A DNA stretch of 16,000 bases from Planctomycetota bacterium (GTDB taxonomy: Bacteria > Planctomycetota > Phycisphaerae > Phycisphaerales > Phycisphaeraceae), in NCBI GenBank assembly GCA_039024275.1, contig JBCDKD010000007.1:30762-46761 (forward strand), given 5' to 3'. The first letter of the stretch is position 1; each line of letters begins with the position of its first letter. Of the stretch, positions 3,123 to 15,251 are shown piece by piece. The position numbers and the translations under genes are program-made. The notes beneath the pieces were generated by a model. That model was given only the letters and a program-made list of their open reading frames with translations, did not search any database and was not told where the DNA came from.

Positions 3123-3154
3123 GTTTCGGGGAGGTGGTTGAGACTACTCGACCG

Positions 3155-3239
3155 ATCCGGACCTTCGCTGTGCTCAGGACCGGCTTCTCTGAGGTGTATC
3201 TACTAGGAAGCCGGTCCTGAGCGCAGCGAAGGTCCGGAT
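3155..3239. repeat. REP-like inverted doublet (REPIN-like), left: two 33-nt units in inverted orientation around a 19-nt spacer
   Basis: Unit 3155..3187 is ATCCGGACCTTCGCTGTGCTCAGGACCGGCTTC. Unit 3207..3239 is GAAGCCGGTCCTGAGCGCAGCGAAGGTCCGGAT. They are reverse complements with 1 mismatch that is G:U compatible. Each unit also folds on itself (CCGGNCC ... GGNCCGG). The doublet starts 33 nt after the Gfo/Idh/MocA stop, so it could also act as a terminator or mRNA-stabilising hairpin. Confidence 0.9.
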
Positions 3240-3262
3240 GGTTTGTCCATTAAACTGATGTG

Positions 3263-3862
3263 ATGTCTTTCGAGAATTACTGCTGGTGGCACCTCATCCT
3301 CACCTGCCGCGGCCAGTGGCTCCCGGGCGACCCGCGCGGCTTCCGTTCTCGTGAGCACCGCGTCCACAGCAGCGGCGACTACAAAAGCCGTCCACCGCAA
3401 GGCGAACACGCCGGGCTGCACGCGTATCAGCAGGTTCGAAGCAACGAACCGGTCGAAGTCCCGCAAGAGAGCAGGCCGGTTCTTGGTGAAGCGATTATTA
3501 ACAAGTGTGTCGCGACCGAAGCGCCTTGTTTGGTGATCGCTACGGGTCGGGCGCACACGCATTTATTGGCTGCCATGTTCAACGACTGGCAGCATGTCAA
3601 GAAGCAGGTTGGGCGATTGAAGCAGGCCGGCTCGCACGCGATCCGCGAGGCGTTGCCGGGTCGCGTGTGGGGGGATGGGGGAAAGCCGATCCGTGTAACA
3701 GATCAAGCGCATCAGAAAAACGTATTTCGATATATCTCGGAACACGCGCAACAAGAGGGGGCCTGGGTTTGGCGGTATGACGGTGAGGGTTCGGCGATCG
3801 ATCCGGGCCTTCGCTGCGCTCAGGCCCGGCTTCTGGAGAAGTTCTTGCAATCAAAATCGTGA
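3263..3862 (+). CDS. HUH/Y1 single-strand DNA transposase-like protein, REP-associated tyrosine transposase (RAYT / IS200-like Y1_Tnp superfamily)
   Basis: 199 aa from ATG 3263 (the track starts one GTG codon earlier, at 3260). N-terminal strand is WWHLILTCRGQWLPGDPRGF. The HUH motif is AHTHLL (H98-T99-H100, nt 3554..3562). This is followed by VGRLKQAGSHAIRE...VWGDGG..IRVTD and the catalytic-Tyr block VFRYISEHAQ (Y157, nt 3731..3733). That order matches the IS200/RAYT layout: HUH, then xGxxKxxxSxxxR, then LWxxxY/F, then YIxxN/H. The last roughly 20 codons are read-through into the right REP doublet (GLRCAQARLLEK...). Confidence 0.7.
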   Translation: MSFENYCWWHLILTCRGQWLPGDPRGFRSREHRVHSSGDYKSRPPQGEHAGLHAYQQVRSNEPVEVPQESRPVLGEAIINKCVATEAPCLVIATGRAHTHLLAAMFNDWQHVKKQVGRLKQAGSHAIREALPGRVWGDGGKPIRVTDQAHQKNVFRYISEHAQQEGAWVWRYDGEGSAIDPGLRCAQARLLEKFLQSKS

Positions 3863-3893
3863 AGCCGGTCCTGAGCGCAGCGAAGGCCCGGAT
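3801..3893. repeat. REP-like inverted doublet (REPIN-like), right: two 33-nt units of the same family around a 27-nt spacer
   Basis: Unit 3801..3833 is ATCCGGGCCTTCGCTGCGCTCAGGCCCGGCTTC. Unit 3861..3893 is GAAGCCGGTCCTGAGCGCAGCGAAGGCCCGGAT. They are reverse complements with 1 mismatch. They belong to the same family as 3155..3239, differing only at unit positions 7, 16 and 25. In unit 3801..3833, positions 7 and 25 are G and C, which makes the intra-unit 7-bp stem perfect (CCGGGCC/GGCCCGG). Confidence 0.9.
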
Positions 3894-3912
3894 CAAACAA
3901 TATTAAACAACC

Positions 3913-7527: not shown

Positions 7528-7689
7528 CGCGGTGGCACCGCTGATCCTTAGAAGAGGGCTTGTGTTTTTCATCACAATAGCCGCGTTGCTACGCGACGCC
7601 GGGTCCCTGTAACACGTACACCATGCTCGCGGCTATTGCTGTTGATACAGCTTTTAACAGAGCCCGTCGGCTATGCCGATAACACAGAC

Positions 7690-8208
7690 ATGCGCCTTGC
7701 CCTGTATGCCGCTGTTTTGTGCCTGTGTGTCGCCTTGCCCGGCTGCGGGGACCTGTCTGATGTCTGGGGCAACCCGCAGGACCGCGCGAAGAAGGGCCTG
7801 TCCGACTCGGACACCAAGCCTTTCGAGATCGGCCCGGCCAGCGACTGGGAAGAGCCCGGCCTGTACATGGAGTACGCCCACAGCCACGGCGTCGCGATTG
7901 TGTCGGACCACGGCATGCTCGTCGCGCTCTTGCTCGTCGGGCCGGAGACCGGCGCCGAGGTCCGCTGGGACCGAGCCGCCGGGCTGTTCCGCGACACGCA
8001 GAGCGACGACCTGTTCACCCGCGACGGCGTCAAGTGGGGCGGCGCAGACGACCGCCCGTCGCTCGCCCGCTGCCGGATCCGCCACCTCGGCCCGCTCGAC
8101 GACCCGGGTGTCGAACTCGTCGTCGACCCCGGCAAGCTGTTCCGGCAGGAAGAACAGCAGTGGTCCAAGGCCGCGAGCAACCACCTGTTTGTGGATGCGG
8201 AAGACTGA
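7690..8208 (+). CDS. Lipoprotein of unknown function (possible ligand-less Rieske-like fold)
   Basis: ORF 7636..8208 trimmed to ATG 7690, where a lipoprotein signal peptide with lipobox starts (MRLALYAAVLCLCVALPGC|GD). Two long antisense ORFs (7654..8334 and 7671..8318) have shadow-type R/A/G/V-rich composition. See the findings for the Rieske-like spacing. Confidence 0.6.
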   Translation: MRLALYAAVLCLCVALPGCGDLSDVWGNPQDRAKKGLSDSDTKPFEIGPASDWEEPGLYMEYAHSHGVAIVSDHGMLVALLLVGPETGAEVRWDRAAGLFRDTQSDDLFTRDGVKWGGADDRPSLARCRIRHLGPLDDPGVELVVDPGKLFRQEEQQWSKAASNHLFVDAED

Positions 8209-8231
8209 TGGGTTGATTGGAACTTGAAATA

Positions 8232-8297
8232 GCACCGCATATGAGTGCGGTGCCCGAGCCGTGTCATACTTTCGGGCACCGGATTCACATCCGGTGC
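8232..8297 (+). repeat. Two similar 22-nt hairpins (8-bp stems, 6-nt loops) between the lipoprotein gene and the symporter gene
   Basis: Hairpin 1 is 8232..8253, GCACCGCA-TATGAG-TGCGGTGC. Hairpin 2 is 8276..8297, GCACCGGA-TTCACA-TCCGGTGC. Both stems are perfect and share GCACCG...CGGTGC. The first begins 24 nt after the lipoprotein stop and the second ends 13 nt before the symporter ATG. Neither is followed by a T-run. Confidence 0.6.
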
Positions 8298-8310
8298 TGC
8301 TGACAGAGCC

Positions 8311-9864
8311 ATGCCCAACCTGTTCGACAGCCAACTCGCCCTGCTGGACTGGCTGATCCTCGCGGGCTACTTCGTGCTGATCATCACGATCGGTGCGCTG
8401 GCCAGCCGGGGCAAGAACGATGAGCAGGGCTTTTTCCTAGGTGGCCGACGCATGCCCGCGTGGGCGGTGGCGATGTCGTTCGCGGCGACCACGCTGAGCG
8501 CCGCGACGTTCATCGGCGGGCCCGCCGAGTCGTTCAAGACCGACCTGACGCTCCTGTCCTTTGAAATCGCCAAGGTGCTGGGCGCATTGCTGGTCGCGGC
8601 GCTCTTCCTTCCCCCCTTGTTCCGCTCCGGCTGCACCACCGTGTACGGCTACCTGGGCCGGCGCGTCGGCCCGGGCGCGATGCAGGCGGCCAGCGCGATG
8701 TTCCTCTTCGGCCGGCTCCTTGCTTCGGGGGCCCGGCTCTTTATCGCAGGCACCGCCTTCTCGCTCATCTTGTACGGCAACCTCGAAACCGCCAACCTCG
8801 TGCTAGCTATCGTGCTCTTCGGCGTCGTCGGCACGCTGTACACCACGCTCGGCGGGATCAAGGCCGTCATCTGGACCGACACCCTCCAACTGCTCGTGGT
8901 CGTCGGCGCGGTCGTCGTGGCGATGCTCCTGCTCCTGCACGCGATCCCACTGCCCATGAGTGAGATCGTTCACGTGCTGCAACAGGAGCAGAAAACCAGG
9001 CTGCTCGACACCTCGTCCGACCTCTCTAAGGCGACCACGCTCTGGGCGGGCTTGGCGATGACCTTCTTTTTCGCCGCCGCGTTCGGCGCCGACCAGGACA
9101 TGGCTCAACGCCTGCTGACCTGCAAGAGCCTTAAGCAGTCGGTCGGCGCGCTCCTGGGCGCGACGCTGATCGCCCTGCCGATCACGGTGATGTTCATGGC
9201 GACGGGCCTGCTGCTGTACATCTTCTACACGCAGCCCGGCCTGATGGGCGCTGCGGCGCCTGCCGACGCGGTGACCGATCACCGCCAGGCGTACCCACGG
9301 TTCCTATTGAACGAGCTGCCGATCGGCATCAGGGGTGTGGCGATCGCGGGCCTGTTCGCCGCGGCGATGAGTAGCCTCGACTCGGCGATGAACGCGATGG
9401 CGTCCAGCGCGGTGTCCGACCTGATCAACCCGGCCCGCCGGGCACTGAGCAGGTCTGAGGAGAGTGACGAACTCGCGCCGCTCTGGTCCCGCCTGGCCGT
9501 CGTCCTGATGGGGGCACTGCTGACCGCCGCGGCGCTGGTCATGGCGCTGATCTACGACCCCGAGGCCGACACCCTGATCCGCTTCGCGCTGGGCGTGATG
9601 ACCTTTGCCTACGCCGGGCTGATGGGCGTGTTCTTGTGTGTGCTTCTGACCGGGCGCGGCAGCACGGCGAGCGTCATCGCCGCGCTGATCACAGGCATGG
9701 CGGTGATCGCTGCCTCGCGGTACGTGCCGTTGATCAAGAGCTGGCCGATCGCCTGGCCCTACTGGATGGTGATCGGCACGGCGGCGAGCCTCGGGGTCTG
9801 CCTGATCGGTGCGGTGCGCCGTGATCACCCGCCGTATACGAACCGCTCTGCGACGCGTCTATGA
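8311..9864 (+). CDS. Sodium:solute symporter family (SSF/SSS, PF00474) transporter
   Basis: ORF 8245..9864 trimmed to ATG 8311 (MPNLFDSQLALLDWLILAGYFVLIITIGALASRG...). The SSS N-terminal signature is FFLGGRRMPAWAVAMSFAATTLSAATFIGGPAESF. There are roughly 13 hydrophobic segments, and GGIKAVIWTDTLQ and SSLDSAMNA blocks are typical of the family. Substrate is not inferable. Confidence 0.85.
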   Translation: MPNLFDSQLALLDWLILAGYFVLIITIGALASRGKNDEQGFFLGGRRMPAWAVAMSFAATTLSAATFIGGPAESFKTDLTLLSFEIAKVLGALLVAALFLPPLFRSGCTTVYGYLGRRVGPGAMQAASAMFLFGRLLASGARLFIAGTAFSLILYGNLETANLVLAIVLFGVVGTLYTTLGGIKAVIWTDTLQLLVVVGAVVVAMLLLLHAIPLPMSEIVHVLQQEQKTRLLDTSSDLSKATTLWAGLAMTFFFAAAFGADQDMAQRLLTCKSLKQSVGALLGATLIALPITVMFMATGLLLYIFYTQPGLMGAAAPADAVTDHRQAYPRFLLNELPIGIRGVAIAGLFAAAMSSLDSAMNAMASSAVSDLINPARRALSRSEESDELAPLWSRLAVVLMGALLTAAALVMALIYDPEADTLIRFALGVMTFAYAGLMGVFLCVLLTGRGSTASVIAALITGMAVIAASRYVPLIKSWPIAWPYWMVIGTAASLGVCLIGAVRRDHPPYTNRSATRL

Positions 9865-11126: not shown

Positions 11127-14100
11127 ATGCCCCGCGACCTTGCCCAATCCGCCGAGCTTATCAGCCAAGCGATGGTTGGCGATCGGCACCGCCTCCGCCG
11201 AAGGCTCCGCGCGATCGAGCAGGCTGCGGAGAACGGCAAGCCCTTCGGTCGAAGCCTCGGCAAGCTTCAAAACGCGTTGGACGAGTCGATCGCCCTACGC
11301 AAGCAACGCAGGGCCAACGCGCCGGCGGCGAGTCTGCCGGATGAGCTGCCGATCACCGCGCGTGCAGACGAGATCATGGACGCGGTCCGCGGTCACCAAG
11401 TGGTCGTCGTTGCGGGCGAGACCGGGTCGGGCAAGTCGACGCAGCTGCCCAAGCTGATGCTGCGGATGGGCCGTGGCGTCGATGGGCTGATCGGGCACAC
11501 CCAGCCCCGCCGGCTCGCAGCACGCTCGGTCGCGCAGCGCGTGGCCGACGAGTTGGGCTCGCCGCTCGGCCAGCACGTGGGCTACAAGGTCCGTTTCACG
11601 GACAAGACGAACCCGAAGACCTACATCAAGCTGATGACCGATGGTGTGTTGCTGGCCGAGGCGGCGCGCGACCGGTTCTTCGACAACTACGACACGCTGA
11701 TCATCGACGAGGCGCACGAGCGGTCGCTCAACATCGATTTCCTGCTCGGCCACCTCAGCCAGATCCTGCCCAAGCGCCCCGACCTGCGCGTGATCATCAC
11801 CTCGGCGACGATCGACACCCAGCGTTTTGCGGAGCACTTCGGCACCGCGACCCGTGACGGGCTCGAGCCTGCGCCGGTGATCGAGGTCTCCGGGCGGACC
11901 TACCCCGTCGAGGTGCGCTACCAGCCGATCGAGCCGGACGAGCACGGCGAGGCCGGCGACACCGCCGAGGCCGTGGCCCACGCGATCGGGGGGCTCGGTC
12001 GTCAAGGCGATGTGCTCGTCTTCATGCCGACGGAGCGCGACATCCGCGCGTGCTGCGGCCTGCTCGAGCGCCGCCAGCCCGGCAGCGAGGTCCTCCCGCT
12101 GTACGCCCGGCTCACCAACGCGCAGCAGCAGGCGATCTTCGCCAAGAGCAGCAAGCGCAAGATCGTCGTTGCGACAAACGTGGCCGAGTCATCGCTGACC
12201 GTGCCGGGCATCCGCTACGTCGTGGACACGGGCACGGCGCGGGTGGCCCGGTACTCGCCGAACTCGAAGGTGCAGCGGCTCCCGGTCGAGGCGGTCAGCC
12301 GGGCCAGCTGCGACCAGCGCAAGGGCCGGTGCGGCCGCGTCGGCCCGGGCTTATGCGTGCGGCTCTACTCGGAAGAGGACTTCCTGTCGCGGGACGAGTT
12401 CACGACGCCGGAGATCCTGCGTAGCAACCTGGCGAGCGTGATCCTGCAGATCGAGACGCTGCGGTTTGGTGCGATCCAAGACTTCCCGTTTATCGACCCG
12501 CCCCGGCCGAGCATGATGCGCGATGGGTATAAGACGCTTCACGAGATCGGCGCGTTGACAGCGGATGACTCGGTCAGCGCGCTGGGCAGGCGGCTCTCGC
12601 GCATGCCGGTCGACCCGCGTGTCGCGCGGATGGTCTTGGCAGGCAAGGACGAAGGCGTGTTACAGGAGGTGCTGGTCATCGCCTCGGCGCTGGAGGTGCA
12701 GGACCCGCGTGAGAGGCCGATCGATCAGCAGGGCAAGGCCGACGCCGCGCACGAGCCGTTCGCAGACCCCCGCAGCGACTTCCTGGCGTACCTCAACCTC
12801 TGGTCCTTCTACCACAGACAGAAAGACAAGCTCTCGCACAACAAGCTGAGGAAGGCCTGCAAGCAGAACTATCTTAGTTACGTAAGGATGCGCGAGTGGG
12901 TGGATGTGCATCAGCAGTTGAAGAGGATGGTGCAGGAATTGAAAGTGGGGCAGACATTCCTGTCTGCCTCAGGCCGTAGGCCTGAACACAAGAAGGGTTC
13001 GGCTGCGCCGAACGGCAGACAGGAATGTCTGCCCCACGCTGCTGAGATCACGGACAGTAAAGCCGACGCGATCCACCGCGCGCTCCTGACCGGGCTGCTC
13101 TCCAACATCGCGAACAAGGGCGACGGCTTCGAATACACTGGGGCCGGCGGTCAGAAGCTGCACCTCTGGCCCGGCTCGTCGCTGTTCGCAAGCAAGCCCA
13201 AGTGGGTCGTTGCCGCAGAGCTGGTCGAGACGACCCGGCGGTATGCCCGCACGGCCGGGCGGATCCAGCCCGGCGTGATCGAGCCGATCGCGGGGCACCT
13301 GGTCAAGAAGACGCACAGCGACCCGCGCTGGGTGCGCGAGACTGGCTCGGCGATGTGCAGCGAGAAGGTCTCGCTCTACGGGCTCGTGCTCGTGCACGCC
13401 AGGCCGGTCCCCCTCGCGCGGGTCAACCCTACCGAGGCGAGGCAGATGTTCATCCAACGCGCGCTGGTCGAGGGCGACTGGGACTGCGACCTGCCGTTCT
13501 ACAAACACAACCAGGCGTTGTTGGAACAAGCCAAGGCGACCGAGGCCAAAGCACGCCGGCACGGGCTGGTCGCATCGGATCAGGTGCGCTACGCCTTCTA
13601 CGACGAACGCCTCCCCGAGACGGTCACCGACAGCGCGGCTTTCAAGAAGTGGTACAAGAAAGCCCACCCCTCTCCCCCCGGGGGAGGGGCCGGGGGTGAG
13701 GGGCGAGGCTCGGTCGAGACAGCGGATCGAAGAAAATCGGATCCTTCCGATTCGCCCCTCACCCCAGCCCTCTCCCGTGGGGAGAGGGGGCAAGACCCAT
13801 CAGAACCGCTGTACATGGACCTGCCGATGCTGCTCGCAGAGTCGGCGGAGGATGTCACCGAGCAGGCGTACCCCGACCGCTTGCGCGTCGAGCAGTCGGA
13901 CCACGCCCTCGCCTACACCTTCGACCCCGGCGACGAGCGCGACGGTTTAACCCTGACGCTGCCGCGCGAAGCGCTTGGCCAACTCGATGCGCGGCGGCTG
14001 GGCTGGCTGGTGCCCGGCATGCTCGAGCAGAAGCTGGTCGCGATGATCAAGTCGCTGCCGAAGCCGTTGCGCAAAACCCTGAGCCCGGCACCGGACGCGG

Positions 14101-15251
14101 CGAGGCGGGCGGTGCAAGCGATGCGCTTCGGTGACGGCCCGTTCGAAGACGCCGCCGCCCAAGCGCTCAGCAAGATCGGCGGGCTGAACCTCTCCGTATC
14201 GGATTTTGACTTAAGCGTTTTGCCCGATGCGTTCCGGATGAATGTCCGGGTGCTTGGCAAGCAGGGCCAGACGCTGGCGGAAGGGCGCGACATCAACAAG
14301 GTCCGTCGCAAGCTCGGCGCCGGGGCGCTGCCGAGCTACGCGGGGATGGACGATCCGCGCTGGGGCGCATCACCAACAACCCGCTGGTCCTTCGGCGAGT
14401 TGCCCAAGCACGTCGATACGACACGCAGCGGGGTTGAGCTCCGCGCGTACCCCGCGCTGATCGATGAGGCCGCGGGCGTCGCGCTGCGCCTGGTCGACAC
14501 GCGCGCCAAAGCCCGCCGGCTCACACGCGCGGGCCTGCGTCGGTTGTACTCGTTCGAGGTGCAGCGCGACTTCGCCTGGCGGGCCGACCGCTGGCAGGAC
14601 ATCGACAAGGCCCGGTTGTGGTTTGCACCGATCGGCGACCCGACGAATCTTAAGGATCAACTCGTGCTGCTGATGACCGATCGCGCGTTCCTGTTTGATA
14701 AAGAGGAAATCACGGGCGAGCAGGCGTTCATCACACGGCAGCGCATCGGGCTGCAGCGGCTCGACCTCGCCGAGCGGGAAGTGCAGCGCGTCGTCGGACC
14801 GGTACTGCAGTCGGCCCAGCGTGCAAGGCTTGCAGTGGAGCGTGCCGATTTCCGACAGGCACCGCACCTCAAAGCCGATGTGCGCATCCAGTTAGACAAT
14901 CTGTTGTCGCCGTCGTTTTTCGTTGAAACGCCGTGGACCCGCCTGGCGTCCTACCCCCGCTATTTGGCGGCGGTCGAGCGTCGACTCGACAAGCTGCATC
15001 GTGGCGATGCGTCGCAGGATGTGGCTGCTTTTAAAGTGATCGCGGAGCATTGGAACCGGTATGCAACAACAGCCAGCGCACTACGCGAGCAAGGCGGGGT
15101 CGACCCCGAGTTGGAGCAGTACCGGTGGCTGATCGAAGAGTTCCGCGTGTCGCTGTTTGCCCAGGAGCTGGGCACGAGCGAGAAGGTCTCGCCCCAGCGG
15201 CTCGATCGGCAGTGGGAGAAGGTCACGGGCAAGCCGCTCGGCGGCGGATGA
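11127..15251 (+). CDS. hrpA: ATP-dependent RNA helicase HrpA (DEAH/RHA family) carrying two in-frame palindromic-element insertions
   Basis: 1374-aa ORF. Helicase motifs: GETGSGKSTQLPK (Walker A), IIDEAHERS (DEAH), TSATID, ATNVAESSLTVPG and QRKGRCGRV (motif VI). An HA2/OB region follows (ILRSNLASVILQ; ELVETTRRY). The long HrpA-specific C-terminal region includes KSLPKPLRK and ends with RWLIEEFRVSLFAQELGT. It is co-linear with E. coli HrpA (1300 aa) from the N-terminal coiled region to the end. Confidence 0.95.
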   Translation: MPRDLAQSAELISQAMVGDRHRLRRRLRAIEQAAENGKPFGRSLGKLQNALDESIALRKQRRANAPAASLPDELPITARADEIMDAVRGHQVVVVAGETGSGKSTQLPKLMLRMGRGVDGLIGHTQPRRLAARSVAQRVADELGSPLGQHVGYKVRFTDKTNPKTYIKLMTDGVLLAEAARDRFFDNYDTLIIDEAHERSLNIDFLLGHLSQILPKRPDLRVIITSATIDTQRFAEHFGTATRDGLEPAPVIEVSGRTYPVEVRYQPIEPDEHGEAGDTAEAVAHAIGGLGRQGDVLVFMPTERDIRACCGLLERRQPGSEVLPLYARLTNAQQQAIFAKSSKRKIVVATNVAESSLTVPGIRYVVDTGTARVARYSPNSKVQRLPVEAVSRASCDQRKGRCGRVGPGLCVRLYSEEDFLSRDEFTTPEILRSNLASVILQIETLRFGAIQDFPFIDPPRPSMMRDGYKTLHEIGALTADDSVSALGRRLSRMPVDPRVARMVLAGKDEGVLQEVLVIASALEVQDPRERPIDQQGKADAAHEPFADPRSDFLAYLNLWSFYHRQKDKLSHNKLRKACKQNYLSYVRMREWVDVHQQLKRMVQELKVGQTFLSASGRRPEHKKGSAAPNGRQECLPHAAEITDSKADAIHRALLTGLLSNIANKGDGFEYTGAGGQKLHLWPGSSLFASKPKWVVAAELVETTRRYARTAGRIQPGVIEPIAGHLVKKTHSDPRWVRETGSAMCSEKVSLYGLVLVHARPVPLARVNPTEARQMFIQRALVEGDWDCDLPFYKHNQALLEQAKATEAKARRHGLVASDQVRYAFYDERLPETVTDSAAFKKWYKKAHPSPPGGGAGGEGRGSVETADRRKSDPSDSPLTPALSRGERGQDPSEPLYMDLPMLLAESAEDVTEQAYPDRLRVEQSDHALAYTFDPGDERDGLTLTLPREALGQLDARRLGWLVPGMLEQKLVAMIKSLPKPLRKTLSPAPDAARRAVQAMRFGDGPFEDAAAQALSKIGGLNLSVSDFDLSVLPDAFRMNVRVLGKQGQTLAEGRDINKVRRKLGAGALPSYAGMDDPRWGASPTTRWSFGELPKHVDTTRSGVELRAYPALIDEAAGVALRLVDTRAKARRLTRAGLRRLYSFEVQRDFAWRADRWQDIDKARLWFAPIGDPTNLKDQLVLLMTDRAFLFDKEEITGEQAFITRQRIGLQRLDLAEREVQRVVGPVLQSAQRARLAVERADFRQAPHLKADVRIQLDNLLSPSFFVETPWTRLASYPRYLAAVERRLDKLHRGDASQDVAAFKVIAEHWNRYATTASALREQGGVDPELEQYRWLIEEFRVSLFAQELGTSEKVSPQRLDRQWEKVTGKPLGGG
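12945..13037. repeat. 93-nt palindromic element (perfect 24-bp terminal inverted repeats with nested inner palindromes) inside hrpA, in frame
   Basis: 12945..12968 is GTGGGGCAGACATTCCTGTCTGCC. 13014..13037 is GGCAGACAGGAATGTCTGCCCCAC, its exact reverse complement. The 45-nt centre contains AGGCCGTAGGCCT and GTTCGGCTGCGCCGAAC sub-palindromes. The element starts exactly at hrpA codon 607 and spans 31 codons (VGQTFLSASGRRPEHKKGSAAPNGRQECLPH). Confidence 0.9.
13667..13789. repeat. Nested G/C-rich palindromic element of about 123 nt inside hrpA, in frame
   Basis: The left half 13667..13706 (CCCCTCTCCCCCCGGGGGAGGGGCCGGGGGTGAGGGGCGA) is an imperfect inverted copy of the right half 13752..13789 (TCGCCCCTCACCCCAGCCCTCTCCCGTGGGGAGAGGGG). 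Local hairpins are CCCTCTCCC-GTG-GGGAGAGGG (13768..13788, perfect) and CCCCTCTCCCC-CCG-GGGGAGGGG. Arms 13688..13706 and 13752..13769 pair with each other. The centre contains ATCGGA-TCCT-TCCGAT. Translation is low-complexity: HPSPPGGGAGGEGRGSVETADRRKSDPSDSPLTPALSRGERG. Boundaries are good to about +/-5 nt. Confidence 0.8.

Follow-up and report, generated by a model that had tools for sequence, protein, structure and literature searches.

An in-frame palindromic insert in the hrpA gene of a Phycisphaerae planctomycete, an inverted pair of BoxC/PIT/TM_ECO repeats

Introduction

BoxC has been known since the 1990s, when it was noticed as a palindromic repeat of E. coli. The motif, also called PIT or TM_ECO, is known from E. 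coli and over 260 further prokaryotes (Hoyne & Maher 2000; Holder et al. 2015, PMC4666352); its three-block consensus is that of Holder et al. 2015 (PMC4666352), whose Table 1 lists E. coli sequences. In E. coli K-12 TM_ECO is reported to be always intergenic (Holder et al. 2015, PMC4666352), and TM pairs of E. coli combine a type A copy (TTA loop) with a type B copy (CCG loop) (PMC4666352). Palindromic repeats are also described inside genes. Rickettsia palindromic elements (RPEs; Ogata et al. 2000, 2002), in the account of them in PMC10969869, are palindromes of ~100-150 bp that lie in frame in unrelated housekeeping genes; once translated, they form additional surface segments that the protein fold can accommodate, and one gene can be hit twice. 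Intragenic REP dimers, tagged by GTAG/CGTC, encode 20-30 aa inside known proteins, notably in large genes of replication and of repair (Di Nocera et al. 2013, PMC3733652); their hosts include the PVC superphylum (Opitutus terrae), and some genes carry them twice (PMC3733652). Here, we describe a G/C-rich palindrome within the hrpA gene of a planctomycete and compare it with these systems.

Results

The window, i.e., the whole 16,000-nt stretch of the source genome that was analyzed, carries one copy of the element. The features relevant to this report are as follows.

11127..15251, + strand: hrpA, DEAH/RHA-type RNA helicase of 1374 aa, intact on both sides of the insert
12945..13037, + strand: palindrome at site 1 of hrpA, of a different family, with perfect 24-nt arms GTGGGGCAGACATTCCTGTCTGCC, in frame
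13665..13794, + strand: whole repeat unit, CACCCCTCTCCCC ... GGGGAGAGGGGGCAAG, consisting of left arm, centre and right arm, ~130 nt
13667..13706, + strand: left arm, BoxC/TM motif in forward orientation, with C-block (13667-13679), G-block (13680-13689), loop CC, G-block GGGGGTGAGGGG (13692-13703) and then CGA
13707..13751, + strand: centre, clade-specific, 45 nt
13752..13794, + strand: right arm, BoxC/TM motif in reverse orientation, TCG-CCCCTCACCCC (13755-13765)-AG-CCCTCTCCC (13768-13776)-GTG-GGGAGAGGG (13780-13788)-GGCAAG

The boundaries of the unit were set by comparing six copies, which come from four genomes and occupy two sites. A first-pass annotation of this DNA had described imperfect inverted halves at 13667..13706 and 13752..13789, and the repeat finder agrees with it within 1 nt, giving arms at 13668-13706 and 13752-13790 of 39 nt each, 82% complementary, at a spacing of 45 nt. 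Each half had also been said to contain its own hairpin, with another one at the centre. The right-arm hairpin CCCTCTCCC-GTG-GGGAGAGGG (13768-13788) is perfect, and a small central hairpin, AATCGGA-TCCT-TCCGATT, is found at 13735-13752; the left-arm counterpart (13668-13689) is present but degenerate in the window, and it is intact in relatives, where the form in lineages L001 and L002 is CCCTCTCCCCACGGGAGAGGG. The palindromic structure exceeds chance by a wide margin: folded as RNA, the element reaches -96.9 kcal/mol compared with -66.8 +/- 4.6 in 200 shuffles (z = -6.6, none of the 200 as stable), which settles the stability check proposed earlier, the DNA fold reaches -48.9 kcal/mol (z = -5.7), and zero matches to the 25-nt arm pattern are expected in a shuffled window. 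A G-quadruplex pattern fits the left arm on the + strand, and G4 patterns are found on both strands of the element. Please note that these hairpin energies are computed values; the arms may also fold as an intramolecular purine-motif triplex, the fold reported for the BoxC/PIT/TM_ECO motif. The Rfam search of the element returned no family at gathering thresholds; microRNA-precursor models (eukaryotic or viral) that came up in a permissive Rfam search were rejected as sub-threshold hits that merely recognise a long hairpin. A scan of 13400-14000 found no promoters or terminators.

The ORF at 11127-15251 matches the Pfam domains DEAD, Helicase_C, HA2_N/C, OB_NTP_bind and DUF3418, and its nearest HrpA orthologues, 86-98% identical, come from Planctomycetota/Phycisphaeraceae MAGs, the 98% level being reached in assembly GCA_039025495.1. 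The DUF3418 match (4e-167) comes in two stretches divided by the insert, with the downstream stretch in frame. Translation and the domains on both sides bear out the earlier statement that the hrpA frame runs uninterrupted through the palindrome, where it reads ...HPSPPGGGAGGEGRGSVETADRRKSDPSDSPLTPALSRGERG...; on the opposite strand, where a PLPxGEGWGEG-type peptide had been pointed out, translation does give LPPLPTGEGWGEG.... The unit can be read without a stop in four of its six frames, the sole stop being a TGA within GGGTGAGGG, so that about 2/9 of random insertions would leave the frame open. The open frame suggests that the insert is translated. In an AlphaFold2 model of HrpA (mean pLDDT 85.7) it appears as coil with pLDDT 34-45, flanked by well-predicted elements, and its peptide is predicted to be a disordered surface loop; both HrpA insertion sites are likewise predicted to be disordered loops.

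Each arm is a copy of the BoxC/PIT/TM_ECO (intrastrand triplex) motif, CCCTCTCCC-loop-GGGAGAGGG-loop-GGGTGAGGG, and together they form an inverted BoxC/TM pair around a 45-nt centre that appears restricted to one clade. With loops of 1-6 nt, the three blocks are perfect in the right arm (13755-13788, minus strand), and the left arm (13667-13703) fits them with 2-3 substitutions. Identity to E. coli sequences amounts to 30-31 of 37 positions for the left arm (TM_ECO type B) and 29-30 of 35-36 positions for the right arm (TM_ECO). The second loops of the two arms are CC(G) and CT, i.e., the inverted pair is present and neither arm is of type A. A blastn search with the right arm found it in 640 of the 5426 E. 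coli genomes, always on the chromosome and with 80-95% identity, and none of the ten matches listed lies under an annotated feature. In genome contigs, a motif pattern search found occurrences in many phyla, with an inverted partner for 44 of 134 matches; its pattern had a 4-nt loop (NNNN), outside which the 3-nt loop (GTG) of the window's subfamily falls. Searching 2.3 Mb of other TM-bearing loci, both bacterial and on viral contigs, gave no match to the centre sequence. The element belongs to kinds already known, the BoxC/TM repeat and the RPE-like coding palindrome, and it is not a new kind of system.

Comparison with orthologues shows that the segment is an insertion into an ancestral 9-codon loop. 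The E. coli protein and 56 of 60 Planctomycetota orthologues have 9 residues in this loop, compared with 50 residues in the window and in P0022, P0002 and P0003; the net gain in filled alleles is 41 codons, i.e., 123 nt, and 2-3 native codons (S-R of K-x-x-S-R-D-x-P-K) are replaced by the unit. The first-pass annotation had proposed an in-frame insertion of a G/C-rich palindromic repeat, with about 41 extra codons (123 nt) relative to the E. coli spacing. The measured distances, start to start, are 86 residues from WYKK to LAYTFDPG in the window HrpA and 45 residues from WWKK to LSYQFEPG in E. coli K-12 HrpA, a difference of exactly 41, and the proposal holds, the segment being missing from E. 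coli and from those 56 orthologues.

The distribution of the element among relatives is patchy. It is absent from L004, the sister of the window (90% nucleotide identity), and only a left-arm remnant is left in L006, with two thirds of the element gone. The same junction position occurs in two non-sister lineages, the window and L001/L002/L006, and the filled alleles are monophyletic in 0 of 200 bootstrap replicates; this and the empty sister would fit independent entry. Import of a filled allele by recombination found no support, the sliding-window identity and the immediate flanks tracking the empty sister and not the filled lineages. We also considered L004 as an excision footprint, where a Q stands at the place of CAA in filled alleles; this is weak, and L004 has both the S codon of the native loop and its x-P-K-x pattern, neither of which is present in filled alleles.

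Between the window and L001/L002, the arms show 93-98% identity and agree at 28 of 28 third codon positions, compared with a gene-wide third-position identity of 65%; the right arm (42 nt) is 97.6% identical to that of L001 and to that of L002. The centre, at 62-69% identity in the same comparison, seems to evolve about as fast as synonymous sites. At the amino-acid level identity is 79-93% in the arms and 40-47% in the centre peptide. A single compensatory pair was found, in the small central hairpin, with no covariation beyond it. These comparisons indicate that the element is maintained as DNA and not as protein, although the near-invariant arms could instead reflect selection for a structure rather than homogenisation. 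Protein-level conservation of the segment in orthologues without the DNA palindrome, which had been named beforehand as the finding that would speak against an inserted repeat, is the reverse of what we observed, i.e., conservation as DNA and absence from most orthologues and E. coli.

In relatives, the family occurs at 2-3 copies per 8-24 kb, of which two lie within hrpA and one is intergenic, and the second hrpA copy of the TM family lies at site 1 (L001, L002, L006 and P0012). In the window, the site-1 palindrome at 12945-13037 differs in sequence from the element and is in frame, as the first-pass annotation had said in calling the two unrelated; across lineages, site 1 is occupied by three unrelated palindromes (the TM family, the window's family and a third). 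Copies of one genome have private variants in common, GATCCGCC/GGGGGCAAG in L001 and GATTCGCC/GGGAGCAAG in L002. Two palindromes within one ORF had been taken to imply either strong filtering or a heavily colonised genome. Colonisation is favored by at least four further palindromic elements in the window and by the multi-copy family, while strong filtering is not required, given four of six stop-free frames and two sites in predicted disordered loops.

Elsewhere, in-frame TM pairs divide Thiolase_N, an ABC_tran domain (ABC ATPase) and a Pol III alpha, and the thiolase reads the repeat in another frame than hrpA, giving SLSPWERAGVRG. An E. coli BoxC pair (hrpB-mrcB) with a centre of 16 nt lies 13 nt past the hrpB stop codon. 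A general link of TM repeats to hrpA or hrpB was rejected, none of the 173 further TM loci, which together span 1.2 Mb, being near such a gene.

Discussion

We consider it probable that a non-coding repeat was captured in coding sequence, i.e., that an inverted BoxC/PIT/TM pair came to sit in an hrpA loop with the frame kept. The ~130-nt unit went into a surface loop of 9 residues where the C-terminal DUF3418 region begins, swapping out 2-3 codons and adding a net 41; hrpA stayed open because four of the six frames of the unit have no stop and its net length is divisible by three. The insert would be translated as a Gly/Pro/Arg/Ser-rich disordered loop that the helicase tolerates, and its peptide is probably functionally neutral. 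The copies in one genome may have homogenised mutually or may derive from one master copy, and the filled, empty and partly deleted alleles would reflect rapid turnover between close lineages.

The spread of the repeat may proceed via some trans-acting or structure-driven mechanism. We know of no transposase for the BoxC/TM motif, and inspection of the window and of ~100 kb of related contigs revealed no cognate autonomous insertion sequence, transposase or mobilising function. The six junction pairs have no consistent direct repeat as a target-site duplication, native codons being replaced and not duplicated; CAAGAC...CAAGAC at site 2 is a doubtful candidate, as it is absent at site 1 and its left CAAG belongs to a conserved Lys codon context. 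What the alleles document is, therefore, insertion, with transposition as a possible route. Random insertion and survivorship alone leave the identical junction in two non-sister lineages unexplained. It is conceivable, if rather doubtful, that within this Phycisphaerae clade the BoxC/TM pair remains actively mobile and target-specific, having entered the same hrpA nucleotide position independently in the window lineage and in that of L001/L002/L006. More speculative is the extension that the pair prefers genes of DEAH/RHA helicases as hosts or has a functional link to them, to which one coincidence contributes, the BoxC pair after hrpB.

Several other explanations have to be weighed against the capture of a non-coding repeat. 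The very stable fold (-96.9 kcal/mol), the G4 patterns on both strands, the invariance of the arms at third codon positions, the two structured elements in HrpA of several lineages and the E. coli BoxC pair 13 nt past the hrpB stop codon would all suit retention of the element for a cis role of its RNA or DNA structure in hrpA, for example a pause in translation ahead of DUF3418 folding, stabilisation of the mRNA, or a feedback in which HrpA resolves the hairpin or G-quadruplex of its own message. However, we hold such a role to be unlikely: the distribution is patchy, with sister L004 lacking the element and L006 two thirds of it, site 1 is occupied by three unrelated palindromes depending on the lineage, hrpA or hrpB lies near 0 of the 173 other TM loci (1.2 Mb), covariation is limited to one pair, and published in vivo tests of PIT/TM motifs gave no promoter, terminator or polymerase effect.

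Exaptation of the insert as protein, with GRGAGGEGRG / SRGERG as an RG/RGG-like disordered RNA-binding loop altering helicase substrate choice, seems slightly less probable again. The thiolase reads the same DNA in another frame (SLSPWERAGVRG), amino-acid identity of the arms (79-93%) is lower than their third-position identity (100%) and drops to only 40-47% in the centre peptide, and the insert is lost or shortened in close relatives, even though the frame is kept in four assemblies across ~18% nucleotide divergence and an Arg/Gly-rich peptide sits on the surface of an RNA helicase. As the relatives are MAGs, repeats often break or mis-join assemblies, and contig L005 stops 24 nt past the element region, we also considered an assembly or binning artefact, i.e., a chimeric MAG join at a repeat; the same insert at the same codon with intact hrpA flanks in four independent assemblies (NCBI, ENA) and the DUF3418 match downstream in frame make this practically negligible.

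BoxC/PIT/TM repeats are among the most widely shared short DNA repeats of bacteria, and the published E. coli picture of them is strictly intergenic. The window and the related loci show that genuine enzymes can harbour the motif in frame, as additional loops of the protein. At defined codons, close lineages either have the insert, cleanly lack it or retain a part of it, and the copies of one genome are homogenised, which provides concrete material for the mechanism of insertion and deletion; if the pair is indeed still mobile, the filled, empty and remnant series at two hrpA loops would be a first handle on how this cross-phylum motif disperses. For annotation, peptides like PLTPALSRGERG or SLSPWERAGVRG within proteins should be taken as repeat-derived. 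The case is relevant to the way in which proteins gain disordered segments from selfish DNA, and as selfish DNA inside a gene it is an interesting case of a kind already known.

Like MITEs (Correia, ERIC/RU, Nezha and others), the element is small and non-autonomous-looking, with long terminal inverted repeats (the 39-nt arms reach tips YTRCAC... / ...GGCAAG), is multi-copy with presence/absence polymorphism and, as MITEs sometimes are, is intragenic. Unlike them, it has no identified target-site duplication or parent insertion sequence, and terminal repeats common to several phyla are unusual for a MITE tied to one transposase. With REP dimers it shares being an intragenic palindromic repeat, of which some hosts carry two. 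REPs have simple hairpin stems, whereas the stems here are purine/pyrimidine-asymmetric and three-block, and no GTAG/CTAC or CGTC/GACG tags occur within 13655-13800. We know of no RAYT link for the BoxC/TM element.

RPEs, compared here by their published description only, resemble the hrpA element as in-frame palindromes in housekeeping ORFs that form a surface segment, a predicted one in HrpA. This likeness is one of behaviour, and a relationship in sequence is not expected. In that description, RPE families occur only in Rickettsia and encode a conserved peptide, whereas the arms of the window element are common to many bacterial phyla and the TM repeat is read in different frames by different hosts.

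The closest system is BoxC/PIT/TM_ECO itself. Common to both are the three blocks CCCTCTCCC / GGGAGAGGG / GGGTGAGGG with short loops, at 80-90% identity with the E. coli copies, the inverted-pair (palindromic TM) configuration, and a local turnover by insertion and deletion in which partial deletions leave a hairpin, as in L006 and the site-1 copy of L002. The differences are that E. coli pairs join type A to type B while both arms here are type-B-like, that the centre is 45 nt and clade-specific in the window compared with 16 nt in the E. coli hrpB-mrcB pair, and that the host is a Phycisphaerae planctomycete; and whereas the E. coli repeats are intergenic, the hrpA copy lies inside an ORF, in frame and presumably translated.

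Structure of the palindrome and its host gene

The G/C-rich palindrome at 13665-13794 lies in the only long ORF that spans it (11127-15251, + strand), assigned to HrpA by Pfam and 8000 homologues. The ORF is uninterrupted across the element, as the first-pass annotation had read it, with the translation ...HPSPPGGGAGGEGRGSVETADRRKSDPSDSPLTPALSRGERG..., and a repeat finder agrees with that annotation on two imperfect inverted halves (13667-13706 and 13752-13789) with hairpins of their own:

13668-13706 and 13752-13790, inverted arms of 39 nt, 82% complementary, spaced by 45 nt
13768-13788, perfect nested hairpin, CCCTCTCCC-GTG-GGGAGAGGG

RNA folding, proposed at that stage as a gauge of stability, gave -96.9 kcal/mol for a 137-nt stretch versus -66.8 +/- 4.6 in dinucleotide shuffles (z = -6.6), none of the 200 shuffles equalling it; as DNA, either strand folds at about -48 kcal/mol (z about -5.7). 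RNAalifold found no informative covariation, because the arms are invariant; the exception is a single compensatory pair within the small hairpin of the centre. Shuffles of the window predict zero matches to the 25-nt arm pattern.

Insertion into a short HrpA loop

The HrpA proteins nearest to the window's are from metagenome-assembled genomes of Planctomycetota/Phycisphaeraceae. Following the WYK helix is a loop (site 2) that has nine residues, K-x-x-S-R-D-x-P-K-x-L, in 56 of the 60 aligned orthologues, and E. coli HrpA has a loop of equal length (VSRETPDL). It has 50 residues in the window and three relatives, P0022 (98% identity), P0002 (82%) and P0003 (81%), while P0006 (locus L006) carries a 10-residue extra piece. 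The segment is thus an insertion in HrpA, as was first proposed from the E. coli spacing; that spacing is confirmed, since, counted from start to start, 45 residues separate WWKK from LSYQFEPG in K-12 hrpA and 86 separate WYKK from LAYTFDPG in the window, i.e., the claimed 41 extra codons or 123 nt. Four independent assemblies speak against an assembly artefact, which is therefore excluded in practice.

At the DNA level the insert position is identical in all filled alleles (those with the insert), two codons past the WYK lysine, and the last insert codon, CAA, occupies the place of the native Arg codon. The insert breaks the Pfam DUF3418 match into two stretches. In an AlphaFold2 model of residues 431-1374 (65 sequences, mean pLDDT 85.7) it has pLDDT 34-45 and no secondary structure, with a confidently modelled helix before it and another confident segment after it; the site of the window's first palindrome is likewise a low-confidence loop.

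Identity of the repeat

Full-text literature searching on the arm sequence pointed to Holder et al. 2015 (PMC4666352), and by sequence the arm is the BoxC/PIT/TM_ECO "intrastrand triplex" motif (TM), CCCTCTCCC-loop-GGGAGAGGG-(TTA or CCG)-GGGTGAGGG. According to that study, E. coli K-12 has 23 copies, always intergenic, with five pairs in inverted configuration; the motif occurs in >260 genomes, its isolated strand forms a triplex in vitro (in vivo not shown), it has no promoter or terminator activity, and it is associated with local instability by insertion and deletion, in which palindromic pairs can be partly deleted. The window arms and the E. coli sequences of that study agree at 29-31 of 35-37 positions, and a blastn search with the right arm matched 640 E. 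coli chromosomes.

The E. coli hrpB-mrcB pair is likewise built as arm-centre-arm, its centre being 16 nt long. In the numbering of Holder et al. it is pair 1+2 (L184, K-12 164300-164900, at about 248-332), beginning 13 nt past the stop codon of hrpB, the hrpA paralogue, and before mrcB. The adjacency is probably coincidence, because none of the 173 other TM loci lies near hrpA or hrpB; there is no general link of the motif to helicase genes.

One genome per species was scanned with an exact pattern whose loop was 4 nt; the window's own copy (3-nt loop) does not fit it, so the scan is silent on the source genome. The matches listed include Alpha-, Beta- and Gammaproteobacteria, Myxococcota, Desulfobacterota, Chloroflexota, Verrucomicrobiota, Planctomycetota, Bacillota and others, and 44 of these 134 have an inverted partner 13-113 nt away. 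Holder et al. (PMC4666352) reported no phage or plasmid association in E. coli. The 3-nt-loop arm occurs in at least 120 IMG/VR viral contig stretches (L185-L264 and beyond), which may be phage DNA proper or prophage host flanks, on 156 plasmid/chromid records (including H12-H26) and in one Leptolyngbya phage. The 45-nt centre is specific to the window's clade; a search of 2.3 Mb of DNA from other TM-bearing loci found nothing that matches it.

In three unrelated genomes (L015 at about 225-368, L016 at about 1660-1806, L031 at about 436-580) a TM arm directly follows a coding end ...RFWNN(D/K)VL..., which we take to be the C-terminus of DUF559/Vsr-like endonuclease genes; a recurrent association is possible.

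Behaviour of the repeat within the clade

Some 760 nt further upstream, a HrpA loop that separates the HA2 and OB domains (site 1) carries the TM unit again (both arms and a recognisably related centre) in related hrpA genes, at the exact place of the window's other palindrome. Three unrelated in-frame families occupy this loop by lineage, and many orthologues have no palindrome there:

12945-13037 in the window, also P0004, P0015 and P0019: GTGGGGCAGACATTCCTGTCTGCC family, peptide GQxFL...RQECL
L001 1989-2109 and L006 11819-11942, also L002 and P0012: TM unit
L004 11868-11964 (window's sister lineage): third family, 30-nt arms, 97% complementary

The two window palindromes are thus unrelated, as the first-pass annotation held. 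Single TM arms lie in intergenic spacers of L006 and L003. The site-1 copy of L002/L003 (L002 3705-3798) is 27 nt short, having lost the second G-block of its left arm, and L006 site 2 (12581-12613) retains the left arm alone, both in frame; these decay products resemble the partial deletions of palindromic TM pairs in E. coli (PMC4666352).

Both L001 copies have private variants in common (GATCCGCC and GGGGGCAAG), as do both L002 copies (GATTCGCC and GGGAGCAAG), and the centres of the two L001 copies are 80% similar, more than those of the L001 and L002 copies at site 2 (77%), which are presumed orthologues. The arms of the window share 93-98% identity with those of L001/L002, with all 28 third codon positions the same, versus 65% third-position identity gene-wide and 62-69% in the centre; arm amino-acid identity is lower than nucleotide identity. 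Constraint or homogenisation therefore acts on the DNA, and the peptide is not its target. This is the reverse of a segment conserved as protein and not as palindrome, the outcome named at first as contrary to an insertion.

In a tree of 1282 ungapped codons (200 bootstrap replicates), the window grouped with the empty L004 allele (90% nucleotide identity) in 100% of replicates, and L001 with L002 in 100%, L006 adjoining; filled alleles were monophyletic in 0/200. Filled and empty alleles are also interleaved in a 34-taxon protein tree. Sliding windows and the immediate flanks showed no imported tract, and no target-site duplication is evident at the insert junctions. Two histories remain: independent gain in the window lineage at the very same position, or an older insertion with clean loss in L004. 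Empty alleles have the native S-R codons, absent from filled ones, and L004 retains S and the x-P-K-x pattern, which would favour independent gain; Q at the Arg position of L004 is a weak hint of older insertion and loss.

Five palindromic elements of four families occur in the 16 kb. The following belong to the others:

3154-3239 and 3800-3894, two copies of one repeat, 33-34-nt arms, 94-97% complementary, GATCCGG[AG]CCTTCGCTG[TC]GCTCAGG[AC]CCGGCTTC, on either side of ORF 3260-3862, apparently intergenic
8231-8298, imperfect palindrome, 27-nt arms, 85% complementary, where ORFs 7636-8208 and 8245-9864 adjoin

In-frame copies in other genes

The 133-nt unit is stop-free in four of six frames, its only stop being a TGA inside GGGTGAGGG; a random insertion of net length a multiple of three would therefore stay open about two times in three. 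In-frame TM copies occur outside hrpA as well. In about 12 soil-metagenome contigs Thiolase_N is split by a TM pair, read in another frame (SLSPWERAGVRG...PHPNPLPKGEG); copies lie within the ABC_tran domain of an ABC ATPase, which has several tandem repeat-derived segments, and between the HHH and OB domains of a DnaE-type Pol III alpha; single arms lie inside a GT4 glycosyltransferase and a SpoIID-like protein.

In-frame TM pairs or arms in enzymes: soil-metagenome loci L130, L149, L156, L158, L159, L160, L166, L169, L173, L177 and L178; plus L096, L111, L147 and L167

A profile of six insert peptides had no match at E <= 1 in a 5.8-billion-protein set and also missed the carriers P0002, P0003, P0006 and P0012; such low-complexity repeat-derived segments appear invisible to it.

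Interpretation and relation to known systems

We consider it likely that a selfish or neutral structured repeat was captured by a permissive, disordered HrpA loop and is translated as filler, its arms kept uniform either through gene conversion between copies or because conserved masters gave rise to recent insertions. A cis-acting RNA or DNA role, including autoregulation of the helicase, seems improbable given the patchy distribution of the element, the fact that unrelated palindromes can stand in for one another at site 1, and the negative published functional tests. That the peptide was exapted as an RG-rich RNA-binding loop is very doubtful, the substitution pattern giving it no support.

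The element is of value for its allelic series at two hrpA loops, which could help explain how the TM motif moves and is lost across phyla. By sequence and architecture the unit belongs to the BoxC/PIT/TM family, but fails its E. coli-based descriptor "intergenic". In its way of working it resembles Rickettsia palindromic elements, and also the intragenic REP dimers that have been reported from large repair genes in PVC bacteria and in Rickettsia. It has no GTAG or CGTC tag. We regard it not as a new kind of system; these are known kinds of repeat in a new host and context.
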